This document shows positions 13,375 through 32,746 of a stretch of DNA of 64,000 bases, one piece after another. Source of the DNA: an uncultured Eubacteriales bacterium (GTDB lineage Bacteria; Bacillota; Clostridia; TANB77; CAG-508); assembly GCA_949294555.1 (NCBI GenBank), contig CASFHP010000008.1, positions 583 through 64,582 of the forward strand. The letters are read 5' to 3'. The notes below the pieces were generated by a model that saw only the letters and a program-made list of their open reading frames with translations, did no database searches and was not told where the DNA came from. Both the position numbers and the translations under genes were made by a program. The stretch's first letter is position 1. Each line of letters begins with the position of its first letter.

Positions 13375-14310
13375 GTGAAAAATATACAAATAGTAACCAA
13401 TGGAATTTATTTCCCGAAAAAGCAAATAGCAAATGAAGAATTGGAAAATAGATTACATTTAGAAAAAGGATATATCGAAAAAAGAACAGGAATTAAAAAG
13501 CGATATTATGCAATTGAAGAAACAATAGAAGACATGGCATTAGAAGCTGTAAAAAATGCTTTGTCTAAAACAGAAGAAAAGGAAAACATCGGATTAATCA
13601 TAACAGCAACAACCAGTACAAATTTGCTAATGCCAGGAATATCAAATTATATTCAGAAGACATTAGAGCTTCCTCCTTGTATATGTTTAGATATACTAGC
13701 TGGCTGTGGAGGATATATTAATGCTTTTGATATTGCTAAACTTTATATAGATTCAGGAACTATCGAAAAAGCATTAATCATTGGCGTAGATAAACTATCT
13801 GAAATTATCGACAAAGAAGATGTTGGGACAGCAGTTGTATTATCAGACGGAGCAGGAGCAACATTGATAGCAAAAGATGAAGAAAATAAAAAAGAAAGAA
13901 TATATGTAACCCACATGCAATCAGACGGAGAAAAAAATGAAATCCTAACATATCAATATGGTCAAAAATTATATATGAATGGAAAAGAAGTATATAAATA
14001 TGCAATAACAAACACAGTGAAAAATATTGATGGATTACTAAATAAAGCAAAAATTTCATTAGAAGATATTAAATACATAATTCCACATCAATCCAATTTA
14101 AAAATCATGAAAGCAATTGCTACAAGATTACATATTTCAATGGAAAAAATGTATACAAACATACAAACAAGAGGAAACACCTTTTGTGCAAGTATTCCAA
14201 TTGCGTTATATGATATGCAAAATGAAGGACTTTTGAAAAAAGGCGATAAAGTCATTTTATTAGGATATGGTGGAGGATTAAATACAGGAAGTATTTTGAT
14301 GGAAATGTGA
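13375..14310 (+). CDS. fabH: 3-oxoacyl-ACP synthase III
   Basis: RTGIKKR, LAGCGGY (Cys), IPHQSN (His), RGNT (Asn), GYGGGL. Confidence 0.9.
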   Translation: MKNIQIVTNGIYFPKKQIANEELENRLHLEKGYIEKRTGIKKRYYAIEETIEDMALEAVKNALSKTEEKENIGLIITATTSTNLLMPGISNYIQKTLELPPCICLDILAGCGGYINAFDIAKLYIDSGTIEKALIIGVDKLSEIIDKEDVGTAVVLSDGAGATLIAKDEENKKERIYVTHMQSDGEKNEILTYQYGQKLYMNGKEVYKYAITNTVKNIDGLLNKAKISLEDIKYIIPHQSNLKIMKAIATRLHISMEKMYTNIQTRGNTFCASIPIALYDMQNEGLLKKGDKVILLGYGGGLNTGSILMEM

Positions 14311-14343
14311 TGTCCAATTGGACAAAGAAAGGATGAAGGAAAG

Positions 14344-15270
14344 ATGAAAAAAGCTTTTTTATTCCCAGGACAAGGCGCACAAGTTGTTGGAATGGGAAAA
14401 GATATTTATGAAAAATATGAAGAAGCAAGAAAAATTTATGATGAAGCTTCTAAGATTTCTGGAATAGATGTAAAAAAACTTTGTTTTGAAGGTCCAGAAG
14501 AAGAATTAAACAAAACAGAAAATACACAAATTGCAATATTAACAACAAGTTTAGCAATTTTAGAAGTATTAAAATCAAAAGGAATACAAGCAGATATAGC
14601 AACAGGATTAAGTTTAGGAGAATATGGTGCCTTAATTTATGCAGGAATTATTAGTTTTGAAGATGGCATTAAATTAATCCAAAAAAGAGGATATTACATG
14701 GGAAATCTTTTACCTAATGAAACATTTTCTATGGCAGCAATTATTGGTTTAGACTCAGCAAAAATAGAAGAAGTTTGCAAAGAAATTGCAAAAGATAATC
14801 AATTTATTACAGTTGCAAATTACAACTGTAGTGTACAAACCGTTATATCAGGAGAAGATATAGCAATAGAGATGGCTATGGAAAAATTAAAAGAGGCTGG
14901 TGCAAAAAGAGCCATCAAATTAAATACAAGTGGACCATTCCATACGATTAAATTGGAAAAGGCAAAAGAAGCTTATGAGAAGGAATTAGAAAATATCGAT
15001 TTTCATCTTGATACAAAGGTAAAAGTGATTAAAAATATTGATGGTACATATTACAATCCAAATGACAACATAAAGGAAATTTTGGCAAATCACATTATCA
15101 GTCCAGTAAGATTTGATAAAGCTATAAAATTAATGGAACAAGAACAAGTAGAAGAATATGTTGAAATTGGACCAGGAAGAACGTTAACAGGATTTGTAAA
15201 AAAAGATAATAAAGAAGCAAAAACAGTAAATATAAATAGCTTGGAAAGTTTGGAAAATTATCTAATATAA
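14344..15270 (+). CDS. fabD: Malonyl-CoA:ACP transacylase
   Basis: FPGQGAQ, GLSLGEY, SGPFHT, EIGPG. Confidence 0.95.
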   Translation: MKKAFLFPGQGAQVVGMGKDIYEKYEEARKIYDEASKISGIDVKKLCFEGPEEELNKTENTQIAILTTSLAILEVLKSKGIQADIATGLSLGEYGALIYAGIISFEDGIKLIQKRGYYMGNLLPNETFSMAAIIGLDSAKIEEVCKEIAKDNQFITVANYNCSVQTVISGEDIAIEMAMEKLKEAGAKRAIKLNTSGPFHTIKLEKAKEAYEKELENIDFHLDTKVKVIKNIDGTYYNPNDNIKEILANHIISPVRFDKAIKLMEQEQVEEYVEIGPGRTLTGFVKKDNKEAKTVNINSLESLENYLI

Positions 15271-15295
15271 AAATACGTTTACTATTATTCATAGG

Positions 15296-15504
15296 TTTTA
15301 TCTGAGTAGAGGTAATGATACTAGCCTATTATTTTATAAATTTTTCGGTTCAATACGATATTTAAGAATTTGTAACATAATTTATTTGAGCCTCTTTCAC
15401 TCAGACCCTCACTACGTGAGTACCGTGAACATTCCTCAATAAATTATATAACAAATTCTAAAACATCTCCAATCACTAGTATCATTACCTCTATTTAGAT
15501 AAAA
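15296..15504. repeat. 209-bp rod-hairpin element (copy B)
   Basis: 29-bp near-perfect IR 15296-15324/15476-15504; 52-nt core 15387-15438 identical to 18522-18573. Confidence 0.9.
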
Positions 15505-15538
15505 ATGTGAAATTTAATTAAAGGAAAGGAAGATAAAA

Positions 15539-16279
15539 ATGGAAGAAAACAAAACCGTATTTGTAACAGGTGCTTCAAGAGGGATAGGAAAAGAAGTAGC
15601 CTTAAAATTTGCAGAAAATGGATACAATGTTGTTATTAACTATGTTTCAAGTAAAACAAATGTAGAAGAATTAAAAGAAGAATTTGAAAATAAAGGTGTA
15701 AAAGCCCTTATTATGCAAGCAGATGTAACAGACAAAGACGCAATTGAAACATTAGTAAAAAAGGCAATTGAAGAATTTGGAAGTATTGATGTATTAGTAA
15801 ATAATGCAGGAATTACAAAAGACAATTTATTAATGAGAATGAGTGACGAAGAATTTGATAAAGTGATAGAAGTTAATTTAAAAGGAACATATGTTGTTAC
15901 AAAAGCAGTTACAAAATATATGATGAAAAAAAGAAAAGGAAGTATTATCAATTTATCATCAGTAGTTGGTGTTGCTGGAAATGCTGGACAATGTAATTAT
16001 TCAGCATCAAAAGCAGGAATTATAGGATTTACCAAAAGTGTAGCAAAAGAATTGGCTTCAAGAAATATCCGTTCAAATGCAGTGGCACCAGGATTTATCG
16101 AAACAGATATGACCGCTGTTTTGTCAGATGAAATAAAAGAAAATATACATAATCAAATTCCATTAAAGAGAATGGGAAGTGCTAGAGAAGTGGCTAATTT
16201 AATCTATTTCTTGGGTTCTGACGAAAGTTCATATATTACTGGTCAAGTGATTAATGTTGATGGTGGAATGGTTATGTAA
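15539..16279 (+). CDS. fabG: 3-oxoacyl-ACP reductase
   Basis: TGASRGIG, NNAGIT, YSASK, VDGGM. Confidence 0.95.
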   Translation: MEENKTVFVTGASRGIGKEVALKFAENGYNVVINYVSSKTNVEELKEEFENKGVKALIMQADVTDKDAIETLVKKAIEEFGSIDVLVNNAGITKDNLLMRMSDEEFDKVIEVNLKGTYVVTKAVTKYMMKKRKGSIINLSSVVGVAGNAGQCNYSASKAGIIGFTKSVAKELASRNIRSNAVAPGFIETDMTAVLSDEIKENIHNQIPLKRMGSAREVANLIYFLGSDESSYITGQVINVDGGMVM

Positions 16280-16404
16280 AAACAAATTGAAAGCAGCATC
16301 TTGCACATTTTTGATATCAAATTCAAACTTCGACGTACAAAGAGTACGTCTTCAGCTTGAATTTGATATCAAAAATGCACAATATACTACTTTGAATTTG
16401 TTTT
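16279..16404. repeat. ERIC-like palindromic element
   Basis: 21-bp perfect IR 16306-16326/16357-16377, apical gacgtac-aaaga-gtacgtc, outer aaaacaaatt/aatttgtttt. Confidence 0.85.
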
Positions 16405-16447
16405 AAAACAGACGAATATGTATTATAAAAATGAAAGGAAGAGAAAG

Positions 16448-17689
16448 ATGGAAAGAAGAGTTGTTATCACAGGTTTGGGAGCATTAACTCCAATAGGAAA
16501 TACAACAAAAGATTTTTGGGAAGGAATAAAATCTGGAAAATGTGGAATTGATGAGATTAAGAGTTTTGACACAACAAATTTTAAAGTAAAACTAGCAGCA
16601 GAAATAAAAGACTATAATCCAGAAGACTATTTTGACAGAAGAGAAGCTAAGAGATTAGACAAATTTTCTCAATATGCTATTATTGCTGCAAGAGAAGCAT
16701 GGAAAGATAGTGGACTAGATAAAGAAACAGAAAATATGGAAAGAGTAGGAATTATCATAGGTTCAGGAATTGGTGGGATTGAAACAACAGAAGTTGAACA
16801 CGAAAAATACATGACAAAAGGACCAGATAGAGTATCTCCAATGTATATTCCAATGGGAATTCCAAACATGGCAACAGGAAATGTAGCGATTGAAATTGGT
16901 GCAAAAGGAGAATCTATTGCTATGGTAACAGCATGTGCTTCAGGTACACATAGTATTGGAGAAAGCTTTAGAATGATTAAACATGGATATCAAGATGTTG
17001 TTTTAGCAGGAGGAACAGAAGCAGGAATAACACCTCTTAGTATAGCTGGATTTACAAACATTAAAGCATTAACAAAAACAGAGGACAAAACAAGAGCAAG
17101 CATTCCATTTGACAAAGAAAGAAGTGGATTTGTCATGGGAGAAGGTGCAGGTGTTATTGTCTTAGAAGAATTAGAACATGCAAAAAAAAGAGGAGCAAAA
17201 ATTTATGCAGAAATCGTAGGATATGGTGCTACATCAGATGCTTATCATATCACATCTCCTGCTCCAGGAGGAGAAGGTGGTGCTAGAGCAATGAAAATCG
17301 CCATGGAAGAAGCACATGTCAATCCAGAAGAAATTACATATATCAATGCACATGGTACATCAACACATCTAAATGACTCTTGCGAGACACAAGCAATTAA
17401 AACAGCATTAGGAGAAGAAAATGCAAAAAAAGTAATGGTAAGTTCAACAAAAGGACATACAGGACATCTATTAGGTGCAGCAGGTGGCGTAGAAGCAATT
17501 GTTTGTGCAAAAGCTATTGAAGAAGGATTTGTTCCAGCTACGATTAATTATAAAGTACCAGATGAAGAATGTGATTTGGATGTTGTTCCAAATGAAGGAA
17601 GAAAAGTAGATGTTAAATATGCAATGTCTAATTCATTAGGATTTGGTGGACATAATAGTAGTATTTTGTTGAAGAAATATGAAGATTAA
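16448..17689 (+). CDS. fabF: 3-oxoacyl-ACP synthase II
   Basis: RRVVITGLG, TACASG, NAHGTST, KGHTGHLLGAAG, GFGGHN. Confidence 0.97.
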   Translation: MERRVVITGLGALTPIGNTTKDFWEGIKSGKCGIDEIKSFDTTNFKVKLAAEIKDYNPEDYFDRREAKRLDKFSQYAIIAAREAWKDSGLDKETENMERVGIIIGSGIGGIETTEVEHEKYMTKGPDRVSPMYIPMGIPNMATGNVAIEIGAKGESIAMVTACASGTHSIGESFRMIKHGYQDVVLAGGTEAGITPLSIAGFTNIKALTKTEDKTRASIPFDKERSGFVMGEGAGVIVLEELEHAKKRGAKIYAEIVGYGATSDAYHITSPAPGGEGGARAMKIAMEEAHVNPEEITYINAHGTSTHLNDSCETQAIKTALGEENAKKVMVSSTKGHTGHLLGAAGGVEAIVCAKAIEEGFVPATINYKVPDEECDLDVVPNEGRKVDVKYAMSNSLGFGGHNSSILLKKYED

Positions 17690-17698
17690 TAATTCATC

Positions 17699-17936
17699 AT
17701 TCACAGCTATTTATTTGAAAAGCAAAAGTTATATTATCATATTTTATTCATTAAATGGCTGGCACTACGAAATATACAAATTCTAACATTATAAAGCAGG
17801 CACCTCTGAACCGCAAGTCTGAGATTCTCCTACTTGATAATGCAAGAATTTGTAATATTTCTCCATTAGCACATTTAATTTCATAAAATATGGTAATATA
17901 ACTTTTGCTTAATTAGACAAATTTTTAACTGTGAAT
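17699..17936. repeat. 238-bp rod-hairpin element (copy D)
   Basis: 28-bp IR 17720-17747/17883-17910, inner acaaattct/agaatttgt stem, C-rich apex. Confidence 0.85.
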
Positions 17937-17965
17937 TATAATAATATAAAAATGGAGGTAGAAAT

Positions 17966-18430
17966 ATGGATTACAAAGAAATTAAAAAATTAATGGATGA
18001 TATGGGAAATTCTAAATTAGAGGAATTAGAAATAGAATTTCCAGATGGTGTAAAGATTAGCATGAAGAAAAGTGAAAAGAGAGAAGTCATTGTTGAACCA
18101 CATGTGATAGAAGCAAGTGCTCCAATGACAGTTCCTGCTGTAAGACCTCAAGAAGAAAAAGGAATGGTAACTGTAGAAGAAAAGAAAGAAGAAAACTACA
18201 AAGTAATAAAATCTCCAATGGTGGGAACATTTTATGCAAGTTCATCACCAGATAAAGATCCATATGTAAAAGTCGGAGATAAAATCTCAAAAGGACAAGT
18301 GGTATGTATCGTAGAAGCCATGAAATTAATGAATGAAATCGAATCAGAGTTTGATGGTGAAATCGTAGAAATCTGTGTTAAAAATGAAGATGTTGTAGAA
18401 TATGGTACACCTTTATTTAAAATAAAATAA
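17966..18430 (+). CDS. accB: Acetyl-CoA carboxylase biotin carboxyl carrier protein
   Basis: SPMVGTFY and EAMKLMNEI biotinylation motif. Confidence 0.95.
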   Translation: MDYKEIKKLMDDMGNSKLEELEIEFPDGVKISMKKSEKREVIVEPHVIEASAPMTVPAVRPQEEKGMVTVEEKKEENYKVIKSPMVGTFYASSSPDKDPYVKVGDKISKGQVVCIVEAMKLMNEIESEFDGEIVEICVKNEDVVEYGTPLFKIK

Positions 18431-18446
18431 GACATAGTATAAGATA

Positions 18447-18649
18447 GCAAAGGTAATATATATAATATTTTTTAAGTTCTCCTGTTCATTACATTCAAAA
18501 AGAATTCATAATGCTTTCTCATGAGCCTCTTTCACTCAGACCCTCACTACGTGAGTACCGTGAACATTCCTCATTTGAAAGCTAAATGAATTCTAATTTT
18601 CATTCCAATCAAGCGTCGAAACTTAAAAAATATTATATATTACCTTTGC
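18447..18649. repeat. 203-bp rod-hairpin element (copy E)
   Basis: About 30-bp IR 18447-18478/18620-18649; core 18522-18573 identical to copy B. Confidence 0.9.
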
Positions 18650-18714
18650 GTACGAAAAAAAATATATATAAATTGTGATATTGTAAAAGTAACTATAAAT
18701 GGAGGTTAAGATAA

Positions 18715-19137
18715 ATGTTAAGTAAAGAACAAATTAAAGAAATTATCCCACAAAGAGAACCATTTTTAATGATAGATGAAGTGGAAGAATATATACCAGG
18801 AGAAAGTGCCGTAGCATATAAAAATGTGAGTGAAGATGAATATTATTTCAAAGGACATTTCCCAGGAAATCCAATTATGCCAGGTGTACTAATTGTTGAA
18901 TCACTAGCACAAACTGGTGCAGTTGCTATCCTTTCTATGGAAGAAAATAAAGGAAGAAATGCTTTATTTGGTGGAATCGACAAACTACGTTTTAAAAGAC
19001 AAGTTGTTCCAGGAGATAGATTAAAATTAGAAGTAAAAATCATTAAGAGAAAAGGTCCTATTGGAATTGGGGAAGCATTAGCAACTGTTGATGGAAAAGT
19101 AGCAGTCAAAGGAGAACTAACTTTTGCGATTGTATAA
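18715..19137 (+). CDS. fabZ: 3-hydroxyacyl-ACP dehydratase
   Basis: [38 protein letters not shown]. Confidence 0.95.
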
Positions 19138-19153
19138 AATCTAATAATGTAAA

Positions 19154-19188
19154 AAAATAAATTGCAATTTTAAATTGCAATTTATTTT
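19154..19188. terminator. Terminator hairpin after fabZ
   Basis: aaaataaattgcaattt...aaattgcaatttatttt palindrome. Confidence 0.65.
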
Positions 19189-19200
19189 AAATCATAAAAA

Positions 19201-19409
19201 TTTTCTTAGAGTCCAATACTTAAGGAATAAATAACTAAAAATATAATAGCAATAAAACATTGTGAAGTCAATACTTATAGGACAAAAAATAGAGAATTTT
19301 AAAATTTTATAAAATAAAAAAATAGAAAACAGAAATAGTTTGTAAAGTTAGATATAACAAGCTATTTCTGTTTTTTTATTTATTCCTTAAGTATTGGACT
19401 CTAAGAAAA
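19201..19409. promoter_or_regulatory. Candidate invertible promoter switch (OFF orientation)
   Basis: 34-bp perfect IR 19201-19234/19376-19409 enclosing a minus-strand TTGACT-17-TATTAT promoter (19271-19243) and a plus-strand terminator (19326-19377). Confidence 0.7.
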
Positions 19410-19520
19410 ATAAAAGAAGTAAAAATGTAAAAAAGAAACAAAATAGAAAACGGATTGCTAAAATACAATTTAAGTGAAAAAGAGAAAATGAATAAACAGA
19501 AGAAGGAGGATTTTTGTAAG

Positions 19521-21170
19521 ATGAAAAAACCAGAAAGGCAAAGAAGTAATGGGATTACTTTAATCGCACTAGTCATAACTGTGATTGTATTGTTAATATT
19601 GGCTGGAATTACAATAAGTGCCATAACAGGAGAAAATGGAATTATAGGAAATGCTGGAAGAGCCAAAGAAGAAACAGAAATAGCCAATGAAAAAGACATT
19701 TTGGAAAAAGCAACCGTGCAGGCAATGGGAAATAACAAGTATGGAAATATTGAAGAAGAAGAATTACAAGAGCAACTAGACAAAGAAACAGGAGAAGGAA
19801 AAACAGAGGCAAGAGATGTTGGAGAAGAGTTTGAGGTATTATTCAAAGAAAGTAACAGATATTATACTATTGATAAAAATGGAAATGTAGGAGAAGCAAA
19901 TACATATGAAGAAGACAAATATCCAGGAGATATTACTGTTGGAAAAGATGGAGAAAAATTAGATGGAAATACAGAAGAAACAGCATATCAAATTTGGTGT
20001 ATAGAAGATTTGGTGGCATTTTGCAACATGGTAAATGGAGAAGGTATAAGACTAGAAAATGGAGAAGCAGTACCAATAACATATAGAAATAGCTTTGCTT
20101 CTAAATATGTTGTACTAAAAGCAAACTTAAATTTTAAATCTAATTTGTCATATCAGAATAGTGAAAGAACAGACTTTGGGGATATTAATGGAAATACAGA
20201 AGATGGGAATACTTTGATAAATGAAATGACAACAGGAACAGGTTTTAAACCAATAGGAACAGGTGGTACTTTTGCAGGAAATTTTGATGGAGACAGTCAT
20301 GAGTTAAAAAATATCCATATTAATTGTCCAGAAAGTACAGTAGGACTATTTGGAACAATAGGTGGAACTACTAATGAAGTGAATATACAAAATATAACGA
20401 TTTCTGGAAATATGATAGGTAGTACGGGAGGTGGCATTGTTGGTTATGTGAATATGACTTCAGAAGCACCAACAGAAAATTTAATAACAATAGAAAATTG
20501 TATTAATAATGCAACAATAGAAACGACAGATACAAGTGGAGGAATTGTAGGATATCGATCAACCAATAATGATACTAGAAGTCTAATTATTGCAAATTGT
20601 ATAAATAATGGAACAATTGAAGGAACAACTTCAGGAGGAATAATAGGAATGGCTTATAGAACGGTAAAGATTATTAATTGTTGCAATAGTGGAAATATAA
20701 TTAATAATCAAAATACAGGAAGCTACATTGGAGCAGGCGGTATTGTTGGAACCAGTATGTATAAAATTGCTATTATTAATTGCTATAATTTAGGAAATAT
20801 AGAATCAAAAGGAAATGCAGGAGGAATTATAGGATATTCGTATTGGGCAGAAAAAAGTATAGAAAATTGTTATAGCATAGGAAAAATATCTGGAAGTGTT
20901 GCTGGTGGTATTATAGGAGGGTTAAACTTAAGTAATGATTTACTAACTACAAAAAATTGCTATTATTTGAATACCAATATTTCAAAAGGAATTGGTGGTT
21001 GGAATTCTAGTGCAGAAGCATTGGAAGATATCCAAGGGGTTACAGATACGGAAATGAAATCAAGTGAAATATTAGGAATATTCAATCAATATGTAACAGA
21101 AAATAAAACAAAAGAAGGAATTGATTTAAAAAGTTGGATACAAGAAAAAGATGGATATCCAATATTTTAG
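19521..21170 (+). CDS. Type IV pilin-like N-terminus fused to GLUG/GGIVG-repeat domain (putative adhesin)
   Basis: RBS aaggagg; RSNG|ITLIALVITVIVLLILAGITI class III signal-like; FAGNFDG; repeated GGIVG/NCxNxG units. Confidence 0.75.
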   Translation: MKKPERQRSNGITLIALVITVIVLLILAGITISAITGENGIIGNAGRAKEETEIANEKDILEKATVQAMGNNKYGNIEEEELQEQLDKETGEGKTEARDVGEEFEVLFKESNRYYTIDKNGNVGEANTYEEDKYPGDITVGKDGEKLDGNTEETAYQIWCIEDLVAFCNMVNGEGIRLENGEAVPITYRNSFASKYVVLKANLNFKSNLSYQNSERTDFGDINGNTEDGNTLINEMTTGTGFKPIGTGGTFAGNFDGDSHELKNIHINCPESTVGLFGTIGGTTNEVNIQNITISGNMIGSTGGGIVGYVNMTSEAPTENLITIENCINNATIETTDTSGGIVGYRSTNNDTRSLIIANCINNGTIEGTTSGGIIGMAYRTVKIINCCNSGNIINNQNTGSYIGAGGIVGTSMYKIAIINCYNLGNIESKGNAGGIIGYSYWAEKSIENCYSIGKISGSVAGGIIGGLNLSNDLLTTKNCYYLNTNISKGIGGWNSSAEALEDIQGVTDTEMKSSEILGIFNQYVTENKTKEGIDLKSWIQEKDGYPIF

Positions 21171-32411: not shown

Positions 32412-32554
32412 ATTTTTACCTCCTTTAATAGTGTCCCCATTTATTTATTTTTAAAATGAAAATGAAAAAAGTTCTTAACAAAACTGTGAAAAAAACCTAA
32501 AAATGAGTAAAAAAAGAGTTTATAAAAATATTTTAAAATATTAAAAAATTACTA

Positions 32555-32610
32555 TTGACTTTTAACCTAAATTAGGTTAAAATATAAATCGAATAACCTG
32601 AAACAGATTA
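32555..32610 (+). promoter_or_regulatory. sigma70 promoter with palindromic operator(s)
   Basis: TTGACT-17-TAAAAT; palindrome ttttaacctaa-a-ttaggttaaaa 32560-32582; second degenerate site taacctgaaacagatta 32594-32610. Confidence 0.7.
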
Positions 32611-32746
32611 AAATACAAAAGTGCGATACAAATAAAATAGCCATACATGTTTCAGGAACGAGGCTATTTTATGCATTATTCTTAACTATAAATATAGTGG
32701 GGGAGACAAACACAATAGAAAAAATAAGGAGGTGAAGGAGGAAGAT

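Follow-up and report, generated by a model that had tools for sequence, protein, structure and literature searches.

How does the same block of 52 nucleotides come to crown two long hairpins whose arms differ from each other? The question is raised by a stretch of 64,000 nucleotides (nt) from contig CASFHP010000008.1 of assembly GCA_949294555.1, here called the window, in which an earlier note had pointed out two identical 52-mers at positions 15387–15438 and 18522–18573. Both lie on the + strand in intergenic gaps of a fatty-acid synthesis (fab) operon. The window holds these two occurrences and no further one, and none is expected by chance, as judged from 100 dinucleotide-preserving shuffles. 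The source genome, labelled G000, comprises 1.90 Mb in 68 contigs with a GC content of 28.5%. On balance, though with appreciable doubt, we regard the 52-mers as apical heads belonging to two members of a hairpin-shaped, non-coding superfamily resembling MITEs (miniature transposable elements with inverted repeats), in which the head would be a cis-acting site read in folded DNA.

Two hairpins with a common head

Each 52-mer, referred to as the head, forms the tip of a hairpin of ~200 nt. The minimum-energy DNA folds of both copies contain the nested TGAG/CTCA, TTCAC/GTGAA, and CTCAC/GTGAG helices that had been proposed from the letters, and the internal loops, described at that time as C-rich, are pyrimidine-rich. 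Copy 1 (15300–15500, + strand) has arms of the A type and occupies the gap between fabD and fabG; its DNA fold reaches −31.4 kcal/mol, compared with −10.45 ± 2.85 kcal/mol for 200 shuffled sequences, none of which equals it (z −7.35). Copy 2 (18447–18649, + strand) has D-type arms, sits between accB and fabZ, and folds at −36.8 kcal/mol versus −11.1 ± 2.6 kcal/mol for shuffles, again with none equal (z −9.88).

The two copies are built differently. A conserved A-type core of 143 nt (15334–15476, + strand), common to copies on contigs C10, C14, and C18 of G000 (91.6–95.1% identity by blastn over 142–143 nt), is enclosed in copy 1 by a locus-specific 25-bp stem. The left arm of this outer stem (15300–15324, + strand) pairs with 15476–15500 in the DNA fold; its only blastn match is this self-inverted one, and no second copy was found in the genome. 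Copy 2 represents ~200 nt from the interior of a D-type element, and its arms align with the D2 group of elements from other genomes. The earlier note had called the arms strongly different and each self-complementary. The hairpins bear out the self-complementarity, and the difference is considerable: 113 nt including the head align by blastn at 80.5% identity, from which ~64% can be worked out for the aligned part of the arms, and nothing aligns farther out. The arms are not unrelated, however. An AAGAA box lies to the left of the head in both copies, 23 nt before it in copy 1 (15364–15368, + strand) and 22 nt before it in copy 2 (18500–18504, + strand), and a TTCTAA box follows the head at a distance of 17 nt in each (15456–15461 and 18591–18596, + strand). 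Because both copies carry these boxes, their arms are diverged homologues rather than arbitrary stems.

A repeat family of gut Clostridia

Four exact copies of the 52-mer and one with three mismatches are present in G000, accompanied by variants with an apical hairpin longer by one base, with a wholly different apical hairpin, with a truncation, or with an insertion of ~150 nt inside the head. A covariance model, R1, built from 87 distinct elements, places about 11 head sites in this genome, and additional divergent heads were not found in it by the model. A pattern for the left half of the head matched in 5 of 41 genomes, namely G000 itself and 4 of the 24 further genomes from its genus; the 16 genomes from four other families of the order gave none. 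Extended to one genome per species, the left-half pattern detected at least 106 loci. The right half of the head is also present in 93 of these 106 matches, so that at least 93 full heads exist in other genomes; among the remainder, nine lie in unrelated phyla, lack the right half, and represent chance matches, and four are truncated, masked, or variant. Among the 80 matches listed, nearly all come from metagenome-assembled genomes (MAGs) that carry the label of uncultured Clostridia, Clostridiales, Eubacteriales, or Bacillota and that, to go by the record titles, derive from animal guts.

The elements are non-coding, multi-copy, and dispersed, measure 65–330 bp, and mount the head on at least five types of arms; a head lies inside a long open reading frame (ORF; at least 90 amino acids) in only 2 of 99 cases. 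Several copies sit at contig ends, and the family constitutes a large repeat population that breaks assemblies of gut Clostridia MAGs. A blastn search with copy 1 against plasmids and phages gave no match, nor did the head pattern in viral contigs of IMG/VR, and an Rfam cmscan of window positions 14000–20000 at E ≤ 10 returned nothing on either head. Full-text literature searches turned up no description of a head-bearing element. The heads seem to define a new, undescribed MITE superfamily of uncultured gut Clostridia with a diagnostic signature of 41 bases.

Anatomy and covariation

Forty-one of the 52 head bases are conserved throughout the family; the other 11 make up the apical hairpin, which varies at the tip from 9 to about 60 nt. 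The conserved flanks of 22 and 19 nt are nearly invariant and comprise the two short helices TGAG/CTCA and TTCAC/GTGAA with the two pyrimidine-rich internal loops. Outside the head follows a helix of ~14 bp, wholly different in sequence between arm types and always paired, and beyond it stand the AAGAA box on the left and the TTCTAA box on the right. Their spacing is tightly kept: of 93 elements, 77 have the left box starting 22 nt from the head and eight have it at 23 nt, and the right box lies 17 nt away in 67 of 93, 16 nt in 20, and 18 nt in five. Farther out, a conserved but poorly paired asymmetric segment is succeeded by more paired stems, which run well past 100 bp and, in complete members, include the transposon ends. 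The asymmetric segments and the unpaired loops are conserved across genomes and arm types.

The arms change in concert. In an alignment of 87 elements with 2157 pair cells, pairing holds in 97.5% of the cells, as opposed to 81% in column shuffles and 32–50% when the partners are slid against each other. Two-sided changes number 362, compared with 106 ± 9 in shuffles (0 of 500 reach 362), and one-sided changes number five. The two head helices show zero variation in the 87 sequences, while in the adjacent helices up to 50 of the 87 carry changes on both sides. The pairs are almost exclusively of the Watson–Crick type, since G·U accounts for 6 of 2157 cells, and mismatches in the arms are more often A·C (135) than G·T (97). 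A distant variant (loci L212 and L261) retains the TTCAC/GTGAA helix and has the other helix swapped in a compensated way. The notion of a conserved head on co-varying, modularly exchanged stems, proposed when only the two window copies had been seen, therefore holds in the wider collection, and the outcome that the earlier note named as refuting, further copies devoid of covariation, did not occur. By the alignment, the head flanks and the two boxes at fixed distance are under sequence constraint, and the helices between them need only to pair. The best-conserved part of the family is its tip and not its ends, which is unusual.

A probable exchange of the apical hairpin

The type of apical hairpin reassorts with the type of arm. 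A CTCAC..GTGAG apex tops 28 elements with A arms, seven with B arms, and a single one with D arms; for a CTCTCG..YGAG apex the counts are 10 with A arms and 14 with D arms. Among the 32 D-arm elements, copy 2 alone bears CTCAC..GTGAG, otherwise an apex of the A and B types, and the A-type copies of G000 carry an identical head. Because this lone D-arm element resides in the very genome whose A copies share its head, the simplest account of the 52/52 identity on two arm types would be an exchange of the apex within G000, presumably by gene conversion across the conserved head flanks.

Apices also harbor foreign hairpins. The head of an A-type element on contig C13 of G000 (32414–32716) is split by the ~150-nt insertion mentioned above, which consists of three further small hairpins, and the apical hairpin at locus L106 likewise contains a hairpin insert of ~50 nt; hairpin tips seem to attract further palindromic DNA. 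A scenario in which the head by itself is a tiny element that inserts into apices is disfavored, as the AAGAA and TTCTAA boxes travel along at fixed spacing in all arm types.

Evidence for mobility

Complete members of the family carry the marks of transposition. In genome G017, perfect direct duplications of 8 bp stand beside short terminal inverted repeats in 6 of 8 detected elements of the D1 type, one of them a mini-element of 65 bp; the D1 right-end motif gives 31 loose matches in that genome. An element from a metagenome (L261) has terminal repeats of 17 bp, an 8/8 duplication, inner arms of the A type, and a variant head. Terminal inverted repeats are present in the B type as well, and inspection by eye revealed duplications at L111 (8/8), at the B-type elements on contigs C6 (8/8) and C2 (7/8), and at the A-type copy on C10 (8/8). 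G010 and G071, two sister species whose flanks are 84–96% identical, lack the C10 insertion of ~277 nt at the orthologous site. Given the terminal repeats and 8-bp duplications of complete relatives, and a site that is filled in G000 and vacant in these two species, the family is MITE-like mobile, non-coding DNA. The earlier suggestion that the elements are the reverse of a normal MITE is not supported in view of these ends. For the same reasons (terminal repeats, duplications, and the empty site), the enzyme that mobilizes the element acts in trans and cuts its target with a stagger of 8 bp.

The outer arms of the C10 copy are part of the inserted DNA and are fast-diverging homologues common to copies in G071. 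An origin of outer arms by insertion into a pre-existing hairpin can be rejected for this copy, given that the empty sites of G010 and G071 hold neither arm and the arms are shared with G071 copies. Fold-back resynthesis of one arm at each transposition was also rejected, as the asymmetric arm segments are conserved.

Orientation relative to replication

G000 has an unusually strong GC skew, which reaches about ±0.2 across tens of kb. On the coding strand it averages +0.262 for majority-oriented genes and −0.065 for minority-oriented ones. Its replication component is 0.16 and its coding component 0.10. Because the replication component exceeds the coding component, local skew reports the replication strand. 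The + strand of the head lies on the G-rich strand (positive GC skew) at 64 of 74 loci: 41 of 42 within co-directional (+,+) gene pairs, 11 of 11 between convergent genes, 11 of 14 between divergent genes, and 1 of 7 in (−,−) pairs. The bias holds where transcription provides no single direction (22 of 25 convergent and divergent loci combined). It is seen in G000 alone (10 of 12) and in G017, where the primary D1-type left-end matches whose flanks could be used fall on the G-rich strand in 8 of 10 cases, the other two being incomplete. The elements have a strong orientation with respect to replication, in which the C-rich strand of the head belongs to the G-rich strand. With respect to transcription, heads in co-directional gene pairs run along it at 42 loci and against it at seven.

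Reading of the head and its rivals

The covariation restricted to Watson–Crick pairs, the replication-linked orientation, and the target duplications with insertion polymorphism together favor a reading in terms of folded DNA over one in terms of RNA. The stems would be kept complementary at the DNA level, either by copying or repair from arm to arm or by selection on the DNA hairpin. The head would act in cis as a site recognized in folded DNA, with the lagging-strand template as its probable location, and may set or stabilize the orientation of the element. Under this account, which we consider probable, the head would offer a sequence-defined handle on how small palindromic transposons sense the direction of replication and on how long inverted repeats diverge and yet stay complementary. 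A more specific proposal, that the head and the two boxes constitute a folded single-stranded DNA module that ties a target-duplicating miniature transposon of the cut-and-paste type to the replication fork, with strand-specific insertion or retention on the lagging-strand template, is speculative and on present evidence unlikely. If it were true, the stems could vary freely because only duplex geometry, about two helical turns from box to head, would be read. Full-text literature searches turned up no description of such a hybrid of structure-specific single-strand recognition and 8-bp duplications.

Several observations weigh against reading the head as a folded-DNA site in a mobile family. 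The invariance of its left half is partly a matter of ascertainment, as the search pattern fixed most of that half, and for the right half a match to a 14-nt pattern was demanded, with at most two mismatches. Directions of replication and transcription are confounded, with only about four discordant loci, and loci in related species are not independent of each other. In 95 of 95 elements the + strand forms the less stable of the two hairpins (by 3.8 kcal/mol on average), and the orientation bias could for that reason reflect survivorship instead of mechanism. Terminal repeats and target duplications are not recognizable at either window copy, so that both are probably decayed, immobile relics and their mobility rests on that of their relatives. 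Among the 142 ORFs neighboring 71 loci, no autonomous element and no transposase with the ends of the family was found. A metagenome scan for the end motif returned 50 loci, mostly by chance, 0 of them with an inverted copy of the end 1–2.6 kb away. The IS66 transposase, considered as that of a parental insertion sequence (IS), was not found in G000, G017, G010, G071, or G019, and gave one weak match in G014. The candidacy of IS66 is itself a guess of ours, which presumes that the resemblance of the end motif and the duplication of 8 bp are telling. MAGs often lose IS copies, which makes the absence of an autonomous IS weak evidence.

A different function for the same conserved tip would be that of an RNA module in operons, whose C-rich, anti-Shine–Dalgarno-like loops or whose hairpin tune the translation, processing, or stability of neighbors such as the fab genes. 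Internal loops that are conserved and lie between co-varying helices are what structured RNA usually shows, and C-rich unpaired motifs typically serve as seed regions of small RNAs in Firmicutes. The predominance of heads along transcription in co-directional pairs, their rarity inside long ORFs, and their recurrence in five fab-operon gaps fit the same idea. MITEs that are co-transcribed, ERIC being one example, can change how stable an mRNA is (reviewed in PMC3184786). Genuine RNA helices, however, would be expected to leave G·U pairs, and by this criterion the covariation, strong as it is, comes with few G·U cells, while G·T mismatches in the arms do not exceed A·C. Moreover, the orientation bias persists between convergent and divergent genes, the stems extend well beyond 100 bp and include the transposon ends, Rfam offers no match, and neither an excess of promoters nor a terminator-like site was found at the elements. 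An RNA function thus seems unlikely; of the two options in the earlier note, a structured RNA or a single-stranded DNA element, folded DNA is favored, and covariation by Watson–Crick pairs only would be unusual for the former. Less likely again is a head without any function that merely looks conserved, either as the family is young or through short-tract gene conversion, on arms that diverge fast by error-prone copying between them. Such a history would account for the reassortment of apex and arm types, for the mirrored changes in the arms, and for heads that are 100% identical in four G000 copies whose arms are about 5% diverged. It fits poorly with head helices that are as palindromic as the arms and yet unchanged in 87 sequences next to helices that vary so freely, with unpaired loops and asymmetric arm segments conserved across genomes and arm types, and with the distant variant, where one helix persists and the other has been exchanged in compensated fashion. 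Even if the head proved functionless, a MITE superfamily recognizable by a 41-base signature would be a useful annotation.

The involvement of single-strand transposition, raised in the earlier note as nicking by an HUH enzyme, brings in the repetitive extragenic palindromes (REPs) and their REPIN arrangements, which would be mobilized as single-stranded DNA by a REP-associated tyrosine transposase (RAYT) of the HUH Y1 class, with the head as the REP hairpin. G000 does contain two RAYT-like genes, the head resembles a REP in size and is imperfectly palindromic, and an orientation bias linked to replication is also a feature of single-strand transposons of the IS200/IS605 kind. Each RAYT-like gene, however, is flanked by its own, different repeat, one a classical REP of ~36 nt in many inverted pairs and the other an inverted repeat of ~40 nt. 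Genes with a Y1_Tnp domain in five head-bearing genomes have a head within about 1.5 kb at 0 of 13 loci (model R1, E ≤ 10), and each element has a single asymmetric head in place of two inverted REPs. HUH transposition is not known to make target duplications, in contrast to the 8-bp duplications of the complete elements. A REPIN-like origin is accordingly very improbable, and for the catalytic site that had also been suggested, nothing indicates catalysis. The RAYT-like gene on contig C13 (12942–13277) scores 69.7 bits with the NCBIfam model REP_Tyr_transpos, below the cut-off of 80 bits, and is followed by the ~36-nt REP, which occurs at dozens of sites genome-wide, mostly as inverted pairs 35–40 nt apart. 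This repeat appears to be a classical REPIN population unrelated to the head. The 142 neighboring ORFs themselves are housekeeping genes, including two tyrosine-recombinase genes and one fragment of a serine-recombinase gene, with no transposase of any kind among them.

Relation to known elements

The superfamily shares features with several known systems. MITEs are defined by terminal repeats, target duplications, and the lack of a transposase, and are often co-transcribed (PMC3184786). By that definition, complete members of the head family qualify as MITEs, and the window copies taken by themselves do not. Correia, ERIC, RUP, and Nezha are hairpin MITEs of comparable kind, being small (about 65–330 bp), non-coding, intergenic, and multi-copy, with terminal inverted repeats and duplications in complete members and frequent co-transcription (PMC3184786). 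Unlike these, the head family has an asymmetric, invariant apical module and fixed-spacing boxes common to arm families with different stems, its stems co-vary by Watson–Crick pairs only, it is oriented relative to replication, and no parental IS is known for it. It also differs from the described hairpin MITEs by its recurrence in five different fab gaps.

REPIN–RAYT systems and the mosaics of REP and BIME units resemble the family as hairpin-forming intergenic repeats of mosaic or nested build, and RAYT genes as well as classical REP pairs reside in the same genome; the head family departs from them in the lack of RAYT adjacency, in its one head per element, and in its target duplications. 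Transposons of the IS200/IS605 group recognize imperfect hairpins and are oriented with respect to the lagging-strand template, which is a point of likeness. They carry subterminal hairpins at both ends and are not known to duplicate their target, whereas the head family has a central head and 8-bp duplications.

Elements in the fab operon

The operon in which the two window copies are found comprises fabH (13375–14310), fabD (14344–15270), fabG (15539–16279), fabF (16418–17689), accB (17966–18430), and fabZ (18715–19137). Heads occupy five different gaps of this operon, at nine loci in seven other genomes in addition to the two loci here. Altogether, 11 of the 73 head loci with flanking DNA (71 elsewhere and two here) are in fab operons, far above the share of this operon in intergenic gaps. 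The repeated colonization of gaps in an essential operon may affect its expression. Among 15 relatives from the genus, those without heads have other hairpins or tandem repeats in the fab gaps; fab-operon gaps are a recurrent home for repeats.

The content of these gaps changes quickly. In G010, whose FabG is 98% identical, the fabD/fabG gap holds wholly different DNA, and on one metagenome contig 230 other letters stand in place of window positions 15266–15523. The content of the fabD/fabG gap thus differs between strains, which points to rapid turnover. In two relatives (L140 in G010 and L142 in G061), copy 1 is replaced by a conserved motif of ~70 nt, rich in G in one part and in C in another, that starts with aaggg..aggg and ends with ggtgtgtcccctgaca; this motif could be a structured element of its own.

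Two further long hairpins lie between the window copies. The one in the fabG/fabF gap (16276–16407) is a member of a different repeat family, which has about 10 blastn matches in the genome, and caps an older, locus-specific hairpin, of which G010 and G061 retain different halves without the inner element. The Rfam search of positions 14000–20000 yielded two matches on this hairpin, both to models of miRNA precursors, far below the gathering score and an artefact of long hairpins, and one weak match at 16733–16751. The hairpin in the fabF/accB gap (~17715–17912) represents the most abundant family, with 54 high-scoring segment pairs by blastn in the genome. It was not detected as a relative of the head by the covariance model; it has a different, GC-rich head and the same AAGAATTTGTAA / ACAAATTCTAA arm motif, and some copies of this family are enclosed by inverted repeats found as well on either side of the RAYT-like gene on contig C5. 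Between the stop codon of fabF and the ribosome-binding site of accB in a related organism, a metagenome contig (L234, bases 126–144) carries a lone MITE end motif, which looks like the remnant of an element in another fab gap.

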